Shown here: positions 49,809 through 58,033 of the stretch, one piece after another | How the letters are laid out: the number at the start of each line of letters is the position of its first letter | How positions within the stretch are numbered: the first letter of the stretch is position 1 | From: Asaia bogorensis | Lineage (GTDB): Bacteria; Pseudomonadota; Alphaproteobacteria; SHVZ01 | Assembly: GCA_945897335.1 (NCBI GenBank) | Contig: CAMDFP010000001.1 | Coordinates: 2,143 to 66,142 of the forward strand | Direction of reading: 5' to 3' | Length of the DNA stretch: 64,000 nucleotides | Notes under the pieces: generated by a model | What the model was told of the DNA's origin: nothing | The model's database searches: none | What the model saw: the letters and a program-made list of their open reading frames with translations, nothing else | Made by a program: the position numbers and the translations under genes

Positions 49809-50207
49809 ATGTCCGACGTAGCCACCCCGACGACGACCGCTCCCGCGCCCACCCCGGCCAAGCCGCCGCGGGTGAAGCGGCAGGCGATGACGCTGACCGA
49901 TGCAGCGGCGGCGCGGGTGAAGGCGCTGCTGGACAAGCGCGGCAAGCCGTCCGCCGGCATCCGCATCAGCGTCCGCACCAAGGGCTGCTCGGGCCTCTCC
50001 TACACCCTCGAATACGCCGACGAGCGCGGCAAGTTCGACGAGGTGGTGGAGGACAAGGGCGTCACCATCCTGATCGACCCGAAGGCGTCGATGTTCATCT
50101 TCGGCACCGAGATGGACTTCGTCGAGGACAAGATGGAAGCCGGCTTCAAGTTCATCAATCCGAACGAGAAAGGCCGCTGCGGCTGCGGGGAGTCCTTCCA
50201 CGTTTGA
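49809..50207 (+). CDS. iscA: Fe-S cluster carrier IscA (A-type)
   Basis: C-terminal CGCGESF motif. The N-terminal extension is uncertain; an alternative ATG lies at 49884. Confidence 0.85.
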   Translation: MSDVATPTTTAPAPTPAKPPRVKRQAMTLTDAAAARVKALLDKRGKPSAGIRISVRTKGCSGLSYTLEYADERGKFDEVVEDKGVTILIDPKASMFIFGTEMDFVEDKMEAGFKFINPNEKGRCGCGESFHV

Positions 50208-50800
50208 CCGCGCCCCTCGCCTGCTGGTCCTGCCGCGGGCCGGTGCCGGCGGCAGAGCCCTTCTGTCCGACCTGCAAGGCGGTGCAGCCGCCGGGTCAGG
50301 GCGATCATTTCGCCCGGCTCGGGCTCGATAGGACCTACGACCTCGATCCGAAGTCGGTCGAGAGGAAGTATTTCGAGCATCAGCGCCGGCTTCATCCCGA
50401 CCGTTTCGCGACCAGGAGCCCGAAGGAACGGGCACTCAGCCAGGCCCAGGCGACGAGCCTGAACGACGCCTACGAGACCCTGATGGACCCGCTCGCCCGC
50501 GCGGTCTATCTGTTGCGCCTTTCCGGGATCGAAACCGGCGGCGACGGCAAGACCATCGACGATCCGGCGCTCTTGATGGAGGCGATGGAGATGCGGGAAG
50601 CCCTGGCGGAGGCACGGACACCGGCGGATGTGGACGCCGTGGTCCAGCATGCACGCGCCGAGGCCGAGACCTGCCGCGCCCAGCTCTCCCAGGATTTTTC
50701 GGCTCCCGATCTCGCTGCCGCGAGGAAGAGCACGCTGCGCCTCACCTACCTCGACAAGCTGGTCGAGGACGCGCGCTCGCGTCGGCTGAACGTGGCATGA
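50204..50800 (+). CDS. hscB: Fe-S assembly co-chaperone HscB
   Basis: N-terminal CxxC…CxxC zinc-finger-like extension followed by a J-domain-like region with HPD (RRLHPDRF). TTG start overlapping the iscA stop. Confidence 0.8.
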
Positions 50801-50820
50801 CGATGATCTTGCCCTTGGCT

Positions 50821-50915
50821 CCACCCCCACCCTGCCCTCCCCCATCAAGGGGGAAGGTTTACAAGGGGACCTCGTGTCCCCTCCCCCCTCCGTGGGGGAG
50901 GGTCAGGGTGGAGGG
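50821..50915. repeat. nested-palindrome intergenic repeat, copy 3
   Basis: CCACCCCCACCCTGCCCTCCCCCA…CGTGGGGGAGGGTCAGGGTGGAGGG, between hscB and hscA. Confidence 0.7.
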
Positions 50916-50939
50916 CGATGCCGGACTGGATTCGTCCGC

Positions 50940-52856
50940 ATGACCCTCCTCCAGCTGCACGAGCCCGGCGAGACGCCGCTGCCGCATGAGGGCGACCAGG
51001 CGCTCGCGGTCGGCATCGACCTCGGCACCACCAATTCGGTCGTCGCCATCTCGACCTCCGGCAAGCCCGAGGTGCTGCGCGACGCCGCGGGCCGCGGCCT
51101 CGTTCCCTCGGTCGTGGCCTACACCGACGAGGGACCGATCGTCGGCGTTCAGGCGCAGGCGCGTCTCGTCGCCGAGCCCGATTCCGTCGTCTCCTCGGTC
51201 AAGCGCCTGATGGGCCGGGGATCCGCCGATGTGAAGGCGCTGGCCGGCACGCTGCCCTATCAGCTCGATGCCGCCGAGGGCGGCATGGTGCGCCTCCTGG
51301 TCGGCGGCCGCCGGCTGACCCCGGTCGAGATCTCCGCCGAGATCCTGAAGGCGGTGAAGGACCAGGCCGAGCAGCATCTCGGCCGCGAGGTCACCCGCGC
51401 CGTCGTCACCGTGCCGGCCTATTTCGACGATGCCGCGCGCCTTGCCACCAAAGACGCCGCCCGGCTCGCCGGGCTCGAGGTCCTGCGCCTGGTCAACGAG
51501 CCGACCGCGGCGGCTCTCGCCTACGGCCTCGATAAGGAGGCCGAGGGCGTCTATGCCGTCTACGACCTCGGCGGCGGCACCTTCGACGTCTCGATCCTGC
51601 GGCTGGAGAAGGGCGTCTTCCAGGTTCTGGCGACCGGCGGCGACGCCTCGTTGGGCGGCGACGATTTCGACCATGCCATCGCCGAGCACTGGCTCGCCGA
51701 CCGCCGCTCCGAACTCGGCGGCGAGCCGATCACCGCCGGCGAGGTCAAGCAGACGCTGAAGAGCGCGCGCGCCGCGAAGGAGGCCCTCACCACCCGCGAA
51801 GCCGGCGACTTCCCCGTCATGCTGCGCGGCAAGACCACGCTGCACCGCCTGACCCGCGAGACGCTCGACAAGCTGATCCGGCCCTGGATCGAGAAGACCG
51901 TCAAGATCGCCCGCCAGGTGGTCGACGACGCCCGCCTGGAGCTTCCCGAGATCAAGGGCGTGGTGCTGGTCGGCGGCTCCACCCGGGTCCCGCAAGTGCG
52001 GCACGCGGTCGAGGCCCTGTTCGGCACCAAGCCGCTGGCCGACATCGATCCCGACGAGGTGGTGGCGCTGGGCGCCGCGCTCCAGGCCGAGGCGCTGACC
52101 ACGGGCTCCGACACCCTCCTCCTCGACGTCCTGCCGCTGTCGCTCGGGCTCGAGACCATGGGCGGCCTCACCGAGAAGGTGATCGACCGCAACACCCCGA
52201 TCCCCGTCGCCAAGGCCCAGGAGTTCACGACATACCAGGACGGCCAGGGGGCAATGCTGATCCACGTCGTCCAGGGCGAGCGCGAGGCCGTGACCGACTG
52301 CCGCTCGCTGGCCCGCTTCGTGCTCGCCGGCATCCCGCCGATGGTGGCGGGCGCCGCCCGCATCCGGGTCACTTTCCAGGTCGACGCCGACGGGCTCCTG
52401 ACCGTCTCCGCCCAGGAAAAGACCACCGGCGTCGAGCAGCGGGTCGAGGTGAAGCCCTCCTACGGGCTTTCCGAGGACGAGATGGCGCGGATGCTGGAAG
52501 AGAGCATGATCCATGCCCGGGACGACATGGAGCGCCGCCTCCTGGTCGAGAACCGGGTCGAGGCCCGCCGCGTCCTTTTGGCGCTGGAGTCCGCCTTGGC
52601 CGCCGATGCCGGGCTGCTGGACGCCGGCGAGGGTGACCGTATAGAAGAGGCCCGCCGCCGCTTGGGGGCCGCGATCGAGGGTGAGGATCGCGACCTGATC
52701 AAGGCGGCGGTCGAGCGGCTGGAGGAGGCCGCCCGGCCGTTCGCCGAGCGGCGCATGGACCGGGCCATCCGGGCCGGCCTCGCCGGCCATTCGATCGATG
52801 AGTTCAAGGGCGATCCCGGCGGCTGCCTGGCGCCCGATCCTGAAGAGAAGAGCTAG
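50940..52856 (+). CDS. hscA: Fe-S assembly chaperone HscA (Hsp70 family)
   Basis: [11 protein letters not shown]…GIDLGTTNS…DLGGGTFD Hsp70 motifs. I chose the ATG at 50940, after the repeat. Confidence 0.9.
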
Positions 52857-52876
52857 GCTTTCGGAGTTTTGTCGAC

Positions 52877-53212
52877 ATGCCGAAGATGACGTTCGTCGAT
52901 CCGGACGGGACCCGCCACGAAGTCGATGCGCCGGTCGGGCTCTCGGTCCTGGAGATCGCGCATAAGAACGGGATCGAGCTGGAGGGGGCCTGCGAAGGCT
53001 CGCTCGCCTGCTCGACCTGCCACGTCATCGTCGATCCGGAGGATTACGAGCGCCTGAAGGACGCGACCGAGGACGAGGAGGACATGCTGGACCTGGCCTT
53101 CGGCCTCACCCACACCTCGCGCCTGGGCTGCCAGATCATCATCACCGAGGAGCTGGACGGACTCAGGGTGACGCTGCCGTCCGCCACCCGCAACATGATG
53201 GTCGACAAGTGA
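52877..53212 (+). CDS. fdx: [2Fe-2S] ferredoxin of the ISC system
   Basis: Cys ligands in [11 protein letters not shown]…C (adrenodoxin type). Confidence 0.9.
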
Positions 53213-53415
53213 GCAAGCCGCTCAAATGGACCGATGTCCACGACATCGCCATTGAGCTGGACGAGGCGCATCCGGACGTCGACATCATGTCCATCCGGTT
53301 CACCGATCTGCACGCCTGGGTGATGGCGCTCCCGACCTTCAAGGACGACCCCGAGCGGTCGGGCGAGAAGATCCTGGAAGCGATCCAGATGGCCTGGCTG
53401 GAAGAGCGGAAGTGA
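53209..53415 (+). CDS. iscX: Fe-S assembly protein IscX
   Basis: 68-aa acidic protein, [17 protein letters not shown]…, coupled to fdx. Confidence 0.8.
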
Positions 53416-53426
53416 CATCGAGTCTC

Positions 53427-53526
53427 GCCCCCCACCCCAACCCTCCCCCACGCGCCGCGGGGGGAGGGAGTACGACGCACCTCGTACCCCCTCCCCCCTC
53501 CGTGGGGGAGGGTTGGGGTGGGGGGC
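53427..53526. repeat. nested-palindrome intergenic repeat, copy 4 (most perfect)
   Basis: Outer arms CCCCCCACCCCAACCCTCCCCCAC / GTGGGGGAGGGTTGGGGTGGGGGG are exact reverse complements. The inner stem is GGGGGGAGGG/CCCCTCCCCCC around GTACGACGCACCTCGTAC. Confidence 0.75.
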
Positions 53527-53546
53527 GCAGCCGGACTCGCTGACCG

Positions 53547-54662
53547 ATGGATCCCCTGCGTCTCGGGGGTGATCCGTCCGACCATCTGGTCGCCGTCGCC
53601 ATGTCCGGCGGCGTCGATTCCTCGGCCGTCGCCGGCATGCTGGTCGAGGCCGGATACCGGGTCGCGGGATTCACGCTGCAGCTCTACGACCACGGTGCGG
53701 CGGTGGCCAAGAGCGGCGCCTGCTGCGCCGGCCAGGATATCCACGACGCCCGCCGCGTCGCCGCCCGCCTCGGCATTCCGCATTACGTGCTGGATTACGA
53801 GAGCCGCTTTCGCGAGCAGGTGATGGCGCCCTTCGCCGCCTCCTATCTCGCGGGCGAGACCCCGATCCCCTGCGTGCTCTGCAACCGCACGGTCAAGTTC
53901 GCCGACCTGCTGGGCATGTCGAAGGATCTCGGCGCCGCAGCCCTGGTCACCGGCCATTACGTCCGCCGCATCGAGGGCCCCACGGGGCCGGAGCTGCACC
54001 GGGCGGCCGATGCGTCGCGCGACCAGAGCTATTTCCTCTTCGGCACCACCAGGGACCAGCTCGCCCGCCTCCACTTCCCGCTCGGCGACAAGCCGAAGAG
54101 CGAGACCCGCGCCATTGCCGGCCGCCTCGGCCTCGCCGTAGCCTCGAAACCCGACAGCCAGGACATCTGCTTCGTTCCGGGCGGGCGCTATGCCGAGGTG
54201 GTGCGGAAGCTCCGCCCCGAAGCCGACGCGCCGGGCGAGATCGTCGACCTCTCAGGCCGCGTCGTCGGCAGGCACAAGGGCATCGTCGACTTCACCGTCG
54301 GCCAGCGGAAGGGCCTCGGCCTCGGCGCCACCTCCGACGGCACCGAGCCCTCCTATGTCTTGCGCCTGGAGCCCGAGACCCGCCGCGTCGTGGTCGGGCC
54401 GAAATCGGCGCTGGCGGCGAGCCGGGTCGATCTCCGCGACGTGAACTGGCTGGACGACGCGCCGATCCCGGCCGACGGCCTCGCAGTCGAGGTCAAGCTG
54501 CGCTCGGCCTCGCCGGCGGCGAAGGCCCGGCTGTTCCCGCTCGACGGCGGTGCTGAGCTGGCGCTGGACGAGCCCCAGCACGGCGTCTCGCCCGGCCAGG
54601 CCGGCGTGCTCTACCGCGGCGACCGCGTGCTCGGCGGCGGCTGGATCTCGCGGGCGGCATGA
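53547..54662 (+). CDS. mnmA: tRNA 2-thiouridine(34) synthase MnmA
   Basis: PP-loop SGGVDSS and the catalytic Cys context (IPCVLCNR). Confidence 0.9.
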
Positions 54663-55165
54663 GCGCCGGCGTCGTCATCCGCCCGGCGACGATCGAGGAC
54701 GCGCCCGCGCTGGCACTCCTGGTGGCGGCGCTCCGGGCGCATCAGAACGACCCGATCGGCGACCTGAACGAAGCGGCGATCCGCCGCGACGGCTTCGGCG
54801 AGGCGCCGGAGTTCAGCATCCTGATCGCCGAGCGCGACCGCCGGCCGATCGGCTATGCCCTCTTCACCAACACCTACGAGCCCGCCTTCGCCGCCAAAGG
54901 GGTCTATCTCGCCGACCTCTATGTCCGCCCGGAGGCACGCCGCTCGGGCGCCGGCCGCGCGCTGGTCCAGGCGGTCGCCGCCGAGGCCCGCCGGCACAAC
55001 CGCCGTTTCGTCTGGTGGACCTCGCTCACCACCAATGCCGAGGCACATGCCTTCTACGCCGCGCTCGGCGCCATCACGCATGAACTCCAGGCGCATGTGC
55101 TGGGCCTGGATGCCTTCGGCCGCCTCGCCGACGCCCATGGCGGCCCCGACCCCGCCTCCGCTTGA
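54659..55165 (+). CDS. GNAT family N-acetyltransferase
   Basis: Acetyl-CoA block (…[13 protein letters not shown]…). ATGA overlap with mnmA. Confidence 0.75.
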
Positions 55166-55238: not shown

Positions 55239-55312
55239 GGCGGTGTAGCTCAGCGGTAGAGCAGGGGAATCATAATCCCTTGGTCGGCGGTTCAAATCCG
55301 TCCACCGCTACC
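55239..55312 (+). tRNA. tRNA-Met (anticodon CAT); elongator Met or a lysidine-modified tRNA-Ile2 cannot be distinguished
   Basis: Cloverleaf read directly: acceptor GGCGGTG/CACCGCT, anticodon loop AUCAUAA, T-loop GGTTCAAATCC, encoded CCA. G1-C72 is paired, so it is not an initiator tRNA. Confidence 0.85.
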
Positions 55313-55315
55313 ATT

Positions 55316-55560
55316 AGGCTCCTAATTCGGGGAACGAACGCGGACCGGCCCTCGGTCTTACCGCGGGTAGCGTTGAAGAGGTCGGCAAAGCGGCTGTCCA
55401 GCTCGACTCGGACCTCATCTCGCTCTTCCTCAGGATAGACGACCACCTTCTCGACAATCGCTCGGATCACCCGCGCGGCCTTCTTGCGCGTCGTCGCATC
55501 CTCGGTGGTCGACGCCCGGAAATCCCTCGGCAGAGAGTGCGAGGGAGTTACCGGCACCAT
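55316..55560 (-). pseudogene. possible recombinase/integrase C-terminal remnant
   Basis: The ORF MVPVTPSHSLPRDFRASTTEDATTRKKAARVIRAIVEKVVVYPEEERDEVRVELD… runs into the tRNA antisense. It weakly resembles the C-terminal region of large serine recombinases. Very uncertain. Confidence 0.2.
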
Positions 55561-55739
55561 CTGTTTTAGGTTATGGAAAACGCTCGGTAGAACCCCAACA
55601 TCCCCTCAACGAGCATGAACCAGTGGACCACAGGAGCGTTACCTTCTCGCCAGGAGATAGTAACGGTAGCTGGACACGCGCTCGGTTAACGTGCTGATGT
55701 AAAGAGGCAGTCTTTGAGAATAATTATCAGTTGTGAAGG

Positions 55740-56486
55740 ATGACGAGACCGGTGGCAGACCGCGTTTGGGAGACGATGCAGGCTAGGATCACTCTGTTCT
55801 CAGAAGGGATCGAGAATGAGCCTTGGCTTCCCGCCCTCTTTGAAGCGATCGCAGAGAACAAAGCTGACAAGGTCGAAAGTCAACCAAAGACCGGCGTCAC
55901 AATTTCACGTGGCAAGTGGCGCGAGGGAGAGCTTCGCGTAAAAAGTGGTCCAGGTCGTTTCGATCTCATCCTCGCGCCGGAGATGGTTCAGACAGTGCAA
56001 CCCTTTCCGGTCATCGGCAGCATCGATGAGATGGATGTGATGATCGAGAAGGTGGAGACATACGTCGCTCCGAACCTGAAGACCACAGAGCGTGTCGCTC
56101 TCGGCATCGGCGTCATAAGCCGATGCGAGAATGAGGATGAAGCGACAAAGGTGGTTACCGAACTCGCGGGAGTGACGACCGACCTGACTAACGCCTCCGA
56201 CTTCATTTTTCAGATCAATCGGTATCGCCAAGTCGATGGGAGACGCGTCAACCGTATTTTGAAATGCTTGTCGTTCTCGGTGCAGGACATAGTCGCGAAT
56301 GTGGCAGCTGATGAAGCGCAGATTACACTTGCTGCGAACTACGCCCGCTGCGACTTCGATTTCAACACACATCCGAGCGGCACTGCCATGCCAGCAGACC
56401 CAATTCCGGCTAAGGAAGTCGCGCCCTGGCTCCGCCGGCTGAGCGGGATGGTTCGTCAAACCCTAACCGAAGGCTTTGCGTCGTGA
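55740..56486 (+). CDS. hypothetical protein, islet gene 1 of 3
   Basis: 248 aa with no recognisable domain. Lower GC. Its stop overlaps the next start (GTGA). Confidence 0.55.
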   Translation: MTRPVADRVWETMQARITLFSEGIENEPWLPALFEAIAENKADKVESQPKTGVTISRGKWREGELRVKSGPGRFDLILAPEMVQTVQPFPVIGSIDEMDVMIEKVETYVAPNLKTTERVALGIGVISRCENEDEATKVVTELAGVTTDLTNASDFIFQINRYRQVDGRRVNRILKCLSFSVQDIVANVAADEAQITLAANYARCDFDFNTHPSGTAMPADPIPAKEVAPWLRRLSGMVRQTLTEGFAS

Positions 56487-57238
56487 TTTCAATCGCCGCC
56501 TATAACGCTGCCGAAGCGGCATTGAACTCTATGGCGGGTGACCATTCGCGCGTGTCCACGGACGCTCACGGGTTGTTTGACTATCGACGGACCTTCAAGC
56601 GCGTACGCTTCGAGGCCGCTGGGACGCGAGGCGTCCCTATTGCCAACGTCACCGTCGTCCATCACGGAGATTTGGCGGATTCCGAGCCAGGCATTTGGGG
56701 CATTGCCACGCCCTCCGAGGCAATGATTGGCTGGACGCGCCGGGCAGTGAACGTTTTGTATTCCCACCCCTTGGCAGTCGTCAGCGCCACGGCGACTACT
56801 CCACATGATTTCTACACGGTCACGGAACTTGCCGCTGCCGTATCGATAGTCGGAGTGCTCGAGCATGGAAACGATCCGGTCGTTACATTGCGAGCCCCTC
56901 TCGCGATTGCCTCGCGTCGGCCCCCTGTGCGCTTTGCTTGGCTTGAAGCTGCCGCTCAGTTCGCAGCAGATGGCAACACTAAGATCGCCTTTCGAAGGGC
57001 CATAGCGGAGCTGGACCTACTGGTTACGAGTGCCGAGTGGGCGGCGATCGGAAGTATTCTTGAGTTATCGTCGACCAATAACCACCCGTGGACGTTCCGT
57101 GTAGGCGTGCTCCGGCTCCTCTCGAAATTTTCGGCGCAAATTCCTGGGTGGAATGACGCACTGAAGGACGTCACCAAGCGGATTAAGGCCGCCGGTAGAA
57201 ATCCCCACGTGGTTCTGCGAGGGCTGTCCCGAGTCTGA
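56483..57238 (+). CDS. hypothetical protein, islet gene 2 of 3
   Basis: 251 aa with no recognisable domain. Coupled on both sides (GTGA upstream, TGATG downstream). Confidence 0.55.
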   Translation: MISIAAYNAAEAALNSMAGDHSRVSTDAHGLFDYRRTFKRVRFEAAGTRGVPIANVTVVHHGDLADSEPGIWGIATPSEAMIGWTRRAVNVLYSHPLAVVSATATTPHDFYTVTELAAAVSIVGVLEHGNDPVVTLRAPLAIASRRPPVRFAWLEAAAQFAADGNTKIAFRRAIAELDLLVTSAEWAAIGSILELSSTNNHPWTFRVGVLRLLSKFSAQIPGWNDALKDVTKRIKAAGRNPHVVLRGLSRV

Positions 57239-57915
57239 TGCTAACCGAGGTTCGCGTCAGGGCACCGGCGCCCGGCCAGATCGGTATCGGATTGCCGCTC
57301 GAGCGCGGCGACGTAGTCCGGCACGTCGGGTTGATTTCTGAATCAGAGGCCGGCTCGATGATGCTGACGCATCTCCGGATGGACCGCGACTTCGAAGCTG
57401 GCGATGTTCCGCAGGACTGGCTCTGGATTAACATCGACCTGGACGGGTTCGAAGTGGATCTCGTTACCGAGCTCGTCAACAAAATCGTCGCGCGCAAGCC
57501 GCAAAAAGTTATGGGCTACTCGTTTGTCCCGCCTGGGAAAGGCTTCTCGGTCAAGGACGGCGAAATCATTGCAATCGGATTTACCTGTTCGACCTACGCG
57601 ATGGCAGTGTTCGACAGCGTTTCGATCCCCTTAATCGACGAAGCGACCTGGGAGCCGCGGGAGTCAGACAAATGGTGGCAGATCGAATTTGTCGCTCACG
57701 TAACGAAGAAAGACGCAATGCTCGGATTGAAGCTGGACGCGGAGGTTGGCGCGCTGCGGTTTCGTCCAGGTGAGGTCGCTGGTGCGGGCTCGGTCGGGAG
57801 AGTCCGACGGCCGGTGAAGTTCAAAATCGCTGAAAAGCTGGCCGAAAAGCTACTTCACGAACTCAAAAGGACCCGCGAGAACATCGAAAGGCGCGCGGCC
57901 AAATCCAAGCGATGA
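57238..57915 (+). CDS. hypothetical protein, islet gene 3 of 3
   Basis: 225 aa, with a basic C-terminal tail KLAEKLLHELKRTRENIERRAAKSKR. No recognisable domain. Confidence 0.55.
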   Translation: MLTEVRVRAPAPGQIGIGLPLERGDVVRHVGLISESEAGSMMLTHLRMDRDFEAGDVPQDWLWINIDLDGFEVDLVTELVNKIVARKPQKVMGYSFVPPGKGFSVKDGEIIAIGFTCSTYAMAVFDSVSIPLIDEATWEPRESDKWWQIEFVAHVTKKDAMLGLKLDAEVGALRFRPGEVAGAGSVGRVRRPVKFKIAEKLAEKLLHELKRTRENIERRAAKSKR

Positions 57916-58033
57916 TTGGCGGTGACGTTCTGGCCAAAATGCTCCACCGCTACCATTCTTTCCTCTCCTCGATTGACCGCGCCCGGCTGGGATCCCTAGG
58001 CTTGGGCGGCACCGTGGCCTAAAAGGGGCGCGT

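Follow-up and report, generated by a model that had tools for sequence, protein, structure and literature searches.

Circularly permuted enzymes of the NlpC/P60 superfamily are marked by a helical subdomain that bears the catalytic Cys, a conserved Tyr and a hydrophobic, lipid-type S1 pocket (Xu et al. 2011, PMC3142127). The conserved Tyr, located upstream of the Cys, serves in P1/oxyanion stabilisation, and in BcPPNE the polar third residue that orients the catalytic His is Glu64, 15 residues after His49 (PMC3142127). The phospholipase toxins Tox-Act1 and TseH belong to the same permuted group, and the toxicity of Tox-Act1 needs both His and Cys (PMC12994826). Bacterial COMMD-like proteins form rings of 8-10 subunits; no function was reported for them, and a hydrolase partner is not mentioned in the main text of the report (Liu et al. 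2026, PMC13392464). The locus described here belongs to a cassette family that brings relatives of both groups together. The locus consists of three overlapping genes, designated A, B and C, at positions 55740 to 57915 of a 64,000-nucleotide stretch of DNA from Asaia bogorensis (contig CAMDFP010000001.1), hereafter the window. Gene C is predicted to encode an enzyme of the permuted NlpC/P60 fold, and the three genes recur on phages, plasmids and chromosomes as a cassette whose first gene is exchanged among apparently unrelated families, COMMD-like proteins being one of them.

All three genes are read from the forward strand and their products are soluble, with no transmembrane segment in any of them. 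Gene A (55740..56486) starts with ATG and encodes a 248-amino-acid protein (pI 5.0) of the family designated A1. Gene B (56483..57238) starts with GTG and encodes a protein of 251 amino acids (pI 9.8), while gene C (57238..57915) starts with ATG and encodes the predicted Cys-His enzyme of 225 amino acids. The list of open reading frames (ORFs) and the sequence itself confirmed the arrangement given in a first-pass annotation of the window, with a 4-nt overlap (GTGA) between A and B and a 1-nt overlap (TGATG) between B and C. Some metagenome gene callers start gene B at the ATG at 56531 (235 amino acids, P0002), which leaves a gap of 44 nt after gene A and no overlap. One public gene call (P0003) starts gene C at Met41 (185 amino acids) and thereby loses His29; since this residue is invariant in the family alignment and lies upstream of Met41, the 225-amino-acid form was taken as correct. 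All three ORFs have homologues elsewhere, and thus they are real genes rather than chance ORFs.

The predicted enzyme encoded by gene C

Searches of Pfam, NCBIfam, PHROGs and PADLOC gave nothing significant for any of the three window proteins, and in a word-index search across 5.8 billion clusters each of them matched nothing but itself. The orphan status suggested by the word-index search was overturned by an exhaustive HMMER search with the three proteins concatenated, which revealed 1173 representative relatives at E ≤ 1e-3, counted as 50 %-identity clusters and mostly related to gene C. Among the best 150 of these relatives, 133 match gene C, 14 match gene A and none matches gene B. The first-pass description of the proteins as having no recognisable domains was therefore correct with regard to the four databases and incorrect with regard to detectable relatives, and a word-index search can evidently mislabel proteins as orphans. 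A single-sequence AlphaFold2 model of the three concatenated proteins had a predicted local distance difference test score (pLDDT) of 36 and was unusable for fold comparison.

Alignments of 46 and 125 members were built for the gene C family. In the larger one, His29 is present in all 123 aligned residues and Cys117 in all 125 members, the latter within the motif GLTC[AS]TF[VI]. Further conserved positions are Trp138 and Arg174 (125 members each), Asp144 (122), Pro177 (120) and Arg141 (116). Position 94 is Tyr in 108 members and Phe in 16, and its location upstream of the Cys fits the role of the conserved Tyr of permuted enzymes. Position 45, which follows His29 by 16 residues, is His in 106 members, Asp in 14 and Glu in four, so that one of these three residues occurs in 124 of the 125 members; position 49 is His in 105, Asp in 11 and Asn in three. 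From this conservation pattern, His29, His45 (or alternatively Asp49), Tyr94 and Cys117 are the candidate catalytic residues of gene C.

The AlphaFold2 model of gene C, calculated from the 125-sequence alignment, reached a pLDDT of 94.5 and a predicted template modelling score of 0.91. It consists of five N-terminal strands followed by helices, with Cys117 opening the helix 117-127 and a long terminal helix at residues 195-224. Both subdomains of the papain-like NlpC/P60 core, the five-stranded beta subdomain and the helical subdomain, are present in the model, and the invariant His lies N-terminal to the invariant Cys, which is the order produced by circular permutation. The model showed gene C to be a predicted soluble Cys-His enzyme with the papain-like, circularly permuted NlpC/P60 fold of the YiiX/LRAT type. 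The first-pass annotation had recognised no catalytic motif in any of the three genes; the invariant His29 and Cys117 and the predicted fold contradict this for gene C. None of the 46 family members matched the Pfam models of the permuted group (Peptidase_C92/YiiX, LRAT, DUF6695 and DUF4105) at E ≤ 0.05, and the family would therefore represent a new sequence clade of the superfamily. Comparison of the family profile with the sequences of the PDB did not reveal a relative.

The same annotation had also pointed to a strongly basic helical tail in gene C and derived from it a binding of nucleic acids. The helix is confidently predicted, but the net charge of the last 30 residues varies from -6 to +9 across the 125 homologues; the charge is not conserved, and nucleic-acid binding by this tail was therefore rejected as unsupported.

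The three-gene cassette and its variable first gene

The surroundings of gene C were surveyed in 84 further loci, which were fetched and scanned with hidden Markov models (HMMs); the 52 non-redundant loci with at least 1.8 kb of upstream sequence were counted. A gene of the B family lies directly upstream of gene C in 49 of the 52 loci, and an ORF occupies the first slot in all of them. Genes B and C are spaced by -115 to +26 nt, while A and B most often overlap by 4 nt. In 40 of 48 cases, compared to about 12 expected by chance, the nearest relative of a given gene C was accompanied by the same type of gene A, indicating that the cassettes mostly evolve as units. As judged from this survey, A-B-C is a widespread, self-contained and horizontally mobile three-gene cassette, of which the window carries one complete copy.

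The proteins in the first slot of the 52 loci fell into four main clusters, with 15 unassigned. The COMMD-like type (F0) occupies 11 loci, and its profile matches PDB 9q6a with an E-value of 4e-22 over 204 residues. Type F3, with no PDB relative, was found in 10 loci, whereas the TIGR04255 type (F1; E ~1e-45) and the type present in the window (A1/F2, defined by the A1 alignment and the HMM survey) were each found in eight. Pairwise comparison of the clusters gave no detectable similarity (hhalign probabilities below 5 %, and 0.5 % for F0 against F2). These profile comparisons showed that the first component is interchangeable and that at least four families, apparently unrelated to one another, can supply it. 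COMMD-like first genes of the F0 type lie, among others, at L031:4649-5323, L063:4567-5259 and L091:4548-5237.

The best HMMER relative of the window's gene A, P0004, has an E-value of 1.6e-27 and 37 % identity. In the A1 alignment, residues R118, A120, D148, N160, N171 and D207 are invariant, and the family has no relative in NCBIfam or the PDB. Two assignments of gene A were tried and rejected. It is not a TIGR04255 protein, since neither the window's gene A nor any of the 15 A1 members matched that model at its 30-bit NCBIfam cut-off and hhalign was likewise negative; the slot-equivalent proteins of phages and Rhizobium score 153-160 bits with the same model. It is also not a COMMD-like protein (HN and COMM domains), since the A1 profile has no such match in the PDB and the F0 and F2 profiles do not align, as given above. 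Similar short motifs occur in three first-slot families (alignments A1, A8 and A10), namely RxGLRY...IDSDF, RxAxG...LELDINT and AxGxNF...LKLDIKP. This likeness hints at a very distant homology which hhalign does not support, and it is noted here as a lead only.

In gene B, the C-terminal region of about 110 residues (141-250) belongs to the conserved middle-gene family, while the 140 N-terminal residues are idiosyncratic. Against a B-family profile built without the window sequence, gene B scored 42.5 bits (E 4e-15, single comparison). The C-terminal domain is probably helical, according to a low-confidence single-sequence AlphaFold2 model (pLDDT 36), and no PDB relative of gene B was found.

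Complete cassettes were found on mobile elements. In seven P2-like Burkholderia phages, detected by tblastn with gene C, the gene C relative is the last of three hypothetical genes; the cassette, with a TIGR04255 first gene, is located between the integrase and a HigBA-like pair beside the portal gene Q. The temperate Acinetobacter phage phi9102, an unannotated record, carries a complete cassette of the A1 type (L104:3588-5687), as does the 6.9-kb Acinetobacter plasmid pAJ_082-4 (L011:4572-6643), where it takes up about one third of a replicon that also encodes a RelE/ParE toxin. On the megaplasmid pCB3060_2 of Rhizobium sp. CB3060, a cassette of the TIGR04255 type adjoins a multiubiquitin/ThiF/DUF6527 set (L010:1675-6657). 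Upstream are a CopG gene and, at a distance of about 4 kb, QueC, while transposases of the IS110 and ISNCY types follow downstream, and the whole looks like a mobile accessory or defence region. On both plasmids the gene C relative is the last gene of a three-gene block. The cassette is rare in curated collections, where it turned up in 1-2 plasmids out of 72,556 and in 8 phage records out of 50,697.

Unrelated housekeeping genes make up most of the 112 ORFs around 19 long metagenome loci; the survey of these neighbours covers the 25 most frequent Pfam families, with families seen once below the top 25 left unlisted. A few markers of mobile elements were among them, namely two integrases, two ParB, TraG, a transposase and ResIII/DEAD helicases. 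When these ORFs were scanned with PADLOC, two DpdF-like helicases dominated the result, with E-values down to 1e-173, and some cassettes adjoin a predicted Dpd-type (7-deazaguanine DNA-modification) system, as judged from the DpdF neighbours in two metagenome loci. Because the neighbours are unrelated housekeeping genes and the GC content of the loci spans 0.31-0.72, a sporadic horizontal spread is indicated. The pattern is that of a self-contained, sporadically transferred module which is not clearly resident in defence islands. These contexts bear out the earlier description of the genes as island cargo, given that homologous cassettes occur on temperate phages and plasmids and scattered among unrelated housekeeping genes, as accessory conflict modules behave.

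The islet at the tRNA-Met gene

In the window, the integration target is a tRNA-Met gene (anticodon CAT; 55239..55313, forward strand), the only tRNA detected by ARAGORN in the 64 kb. A repeat search revealed a 15-nt direct repeat, TCCACCGCTACCATT, in two copies of 100 % identity. The left, attL-like copy (55301..55315) overlaps the 3' end of the tRNA and comprises its last 13 nt and the next 2 nt; the right, attR-like copy (57943..57957) begins 28 nt past the gene C stop codon and forms the right boundary of the islet. The window holds no third exact copy; by chance, the region would contain about 0.009 such pairs. The GC content is 0.55-0.60 over approximately 55500-58000, compared to about 0.70 outside, and returns to about 0.68-0.71 past 58000. 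At third codon positions (GC3), the values are 0.64-0.71 for the three genes and 0.89-0.93 for the flanking genes. Since a repeat of the tRNA 3' end flanks the segment and both GC and GC3 drop, the segment is a 2.6-kb horizontally acquired islet inserted at the 3' end of tRNA-Met, and the tRNA-borne islet proposed by the first-pass annotation was thus verified. Three features of tRNA islands, namely insertion at a tRNA 3' end, a flanking repeat and deviant composition, are thus present.

The 179 nt upstream of the operon (55561..55739, forward strand) contain a GAAGG Shine-Dalgarno-like motif directly before the ATG of gene A. A promoter scan gave no sigma-70 consensus site, which is a weak test for an alphaproteobacterium of 70 % GC. 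A 96-amino-acid ORF lies on the minus strand next to the left repeat (55270..55560), and its 3' end runs antisense through the 3' half of tRNA-Met. It has an islet-like GC3 of 0.72 and is called as a gene in metagenome annotations of the same locus; neither a Pfam match nor a tblastn match in plasmids was obtained. This ORF may be what is left of a lost mobility gene, or it may be spurious. An origin as the C-terminal remnant of a serine recombinase was not supported by Pfam or by the tblastn search of plasmids. According to the ORF list, all ORFs shorter than 60 amino acids in the islet are nested within the three genes. Metagenome annotations also give a 36-amino-acid ORF at 57912-58022, which overlaps the gene C stop, spans the right repeat, has no family match and is probably spurious.

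The islet locus is identical or near-identical in four independent metagenome assemblies; only three substitutions fall within the genes, clustered in one contig, which is too few for a ratio of nonsynonymous to synonymous substitutions. The only related genome in the species-level collection (L005, CAXNIC010000400.1) is about 94 % identical over the isc/mnmA flank (window 50022-54918), and its contig ends within the GNAT gene, just short of the tRNA. In a more distant relative (L006) no synteny was apparent, as judged from ORF and tRNA positions alone.

Possible function and comparison with known systems

In the favoured interpretation, A-B-C would be a mobile conflict module, either of the anti-phage abortive-infection type or of an addiction, toxin-antitoxin-like type, with an effector that, by analogy with described enzymes of the same fold, would be lipid- or acyl-directed; we hold this interpretation with evenly balanced confidence. 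The three products would work jointly as a module carried by phages, plasmids and islets. Gene C would provide the effector, whose most likely activity would be the cleavage or transfer of a fatty-acyl group, the substrate being either a phospholipid or a protein that is lipidated or acylated; the analogues behind this proposed activity are YiiX, in whose active site a fatty acid is bound, PLAAT/LRAT, TseH and Tox-Act1. The protein encoded by B would restrain C or couple it to A, and the protein encoded by A, as a variable sensor or scaffold, would determine the trigger; once released, C would damage the cell. A more specific version, in which A-B-C is an unrecognised anti-phage or addiction family whose swappable oligomeric sensors (COMMD-like rings, TIGR04255) control a permuted NlpC/P60 acyl-hydrolase or transferase through the adaptor B, is offered tentatively and is rather doubtful.

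Several results weigh against a conflict module. None of the 12 cassette proteins of four loci (the three of the window and nine from three other cassettes) matched a model of PADLOC-DB v2.0.0, and most of the 19 long metagenome loci lie outside recognisable defence islands. Gene C has neither a membrane anchor nor a signal peptide, and the lipid substrate is proposed by analogy with its relatives. The roles suggested for A and B are inferred solely from position and conservation pattern, and gene B contains no recognisable antitoxin, DNA-binding or other known domain. Proteins of the A1 type are not exclusive to the cassette, because P0004 heads a different three-gene block (L012:6001-8184), in which the partners of 332 and 154 amino acids match neither the B nor the C family. 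In the islet of the window no integrase or recombinase gene was found, the 96-amino-acid ORF being the sole other ORF of at least 60 amino acids outside the three genes; the islet may thus be a decaying remnant, though the catalytic residues of gene C are all intact.

With respect to defence, the first-pass annotation had taken the context as typical of anti-phage systems and addiction modules. Only a minority of the loci lie beside known defence genes, and the 12 cassette proteins compared match no PADLOC model; a defence function of the cassette is unproven, and it may possibly serve in phage defence or in plasmid or prophage addiction. The three proteins were not assigned to any ordinary metabolic or structural family and their homologues are not syntenic core genes, in agreement with that annotation. 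As a whole its interpretation was partly supported: the tightly packed operon on an acquired islet stands, and the absence of a motif and the basic tail as evidence of function do not.

A different explanation is that the cassette is an inter-bacterial toxin module, in which C would be a secreted lipid-targeting effector, of type VI or similar, B would confer immunity to it and A would serve as adaptor or chaperone. Here the putative immunity gene would precede the toxin gene, and the reverse order is usually expected in such modules. VgrG, PAAR, Hcp and DUF2169 are not among the 25 most frequent Pfam families of the 112 neighbours, and the annotated part of the window (47-64 kb) contains none of these four either. 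Temperate phages and a plasmid of 6.9 kb are among the carriers of the cassette, and gene B lacks a signal peptide or transmembrane segment, in contrast to the membrane-associated immunity protein reported for Tox-Act1 (PMC12994826). A secreted effector is considered improbable.

Alternatively, the cassette could encode an accessory acyl-transfer or deacylation pathway of the lysogenic-conversion type, in which host lipoproteins, lipids or acylated proteins would be remodelled and C would not act in suicide or defence. Modification of the cell envelope is a frequent role of prophage accessory genes. Papers on the LnsAB system of S. aureus, which N-acylates lipoproteins, mention YiiX and YaeF. 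Moreover, the permuted NlpC/P60 enzymes include acyltransferases and lipid-amino-acid amidases, such as LRAT, PLAAT and the activity proposed for YiiX (PMC3142127, PMC12994826). Against such a pathway, the products of A, B and C in the window are all soluble and lack transmembrane segments, and genes for lipid or lipoprotein biosynthesis do not recur among the 112 neighbours. The exchange of the A slot among apparently unrelated families is also a trait that is typically seen in conflict systems and seldom in a fixed metabolic pathway. Acyl remodelling is given a similarly low probability.

It is also conceivable, and in our estimation quite improbable, that C acts on proteins, as a protease, a deconjugase or a lysine fatty-acyltransferase comparable to PPPDE/DeSI or MARTX RID, with the A oligomer or a phage protein as its target. 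Finally, it is very improbable that the islet is, in this genome, the decaying and non-functional remnant of a larger mobile element: its size of only 2.6 kb, the missing integrase or recombinase, the possible gene fragment next to attL and the consensus promoter that was not found would fit this, whereas the three ORFs are intact and full length for their families, every conserved catalytic residue of gene C is present, the locus recurs in the four independent metagenome assemblies, and the sigma-70 scan is weak at this GC content.

The conflict module, if real, would add a new modular architecture in which a swappable first component is combined with a constant adaptor and effector, as a form of defence or addiction. 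If COMMD-like sensors control C, prokaryotic COMMD-like proteins would gain their first functional context, and a bacterial conflict system would be hinted at as the source of the component from which the COMMD scaffold of eukaryotes descends. Independently of these possibilities, bacterial COMMD-like rings are now placed in a defined three-gene operon together with a predicted enzyme, which makes their function directly testable. The permuted NlpC/P60 superfamily gains a clade that is easily mutated at His29 and Cys117; phospholipase toxins and acyltransferases are found among its other clades. In metagenomes the cassette is common, with more than 1000 clusters, mostly of gene C relatives, and is absent from Pfam, NCBIfam and PADLOC except for TIGR04255, which represents one first-gene variant. 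The literature search found no paper describing the A-B-C cassette, no mention of TIGR04255 and no link of YiiX-like, permuted papain or COMMD-like proteins to phage defence.

Among known systems, the closest in predicted fold are the YiiX-type permuted NlpC/P60 enzymes, with which gene C shares only about 11 % sequence identity. YiiX itself is an ordinary chromosomal gene of E. coli, whereas the gene C family sits in the A-B-C cassette and has its own conserved residues (W138, R141, D144, R174, R176 and P177) and a long C-terminal helix. The type VI toxins TseH (DUF6695) and Tox-Act1 differ in that gene C has no sequence-level similarity to them, that secretion-system neighbours were not seen among the 25 commonest families, that the cassette is borne by phages and plasmids, and that the partner B is soluble rather than membrane-associated. 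With regard to the first slot, the F0 first genes (11 of 52 loci) are clear homologues of the COMMD-like ring proteins (PDB 9q6a, MBK5214510), while the gene A of the window belongs to a different family. The TIGR04255 proteins (NCBIfam 'sporadTIGR04255'), which occur on the Burkholderia phages and the Rhizobium plasmid as well as in 8 of the 52 loci, share with gene A the slot upstream of B and C and a similar length of about 250 amino acids, and neither the window's gene A nor its 14 relatives match that family. In location the cassette resembles the accessory hotspots of P2-like prophages, between the integrase and the portal gene Q beside a HigBA-like pair, and the defence islets at tRNA genes with flanking repeats; it differs from both in matching no PADLOC v2 system, and in the window also in the lack of an integrase. 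In comparison with these systems, a mobile conflict-type operon with a papain-like effector is of a known kind, and what is new here is the predicted enzyme clade and the undescribed modular architecture in which it is found.

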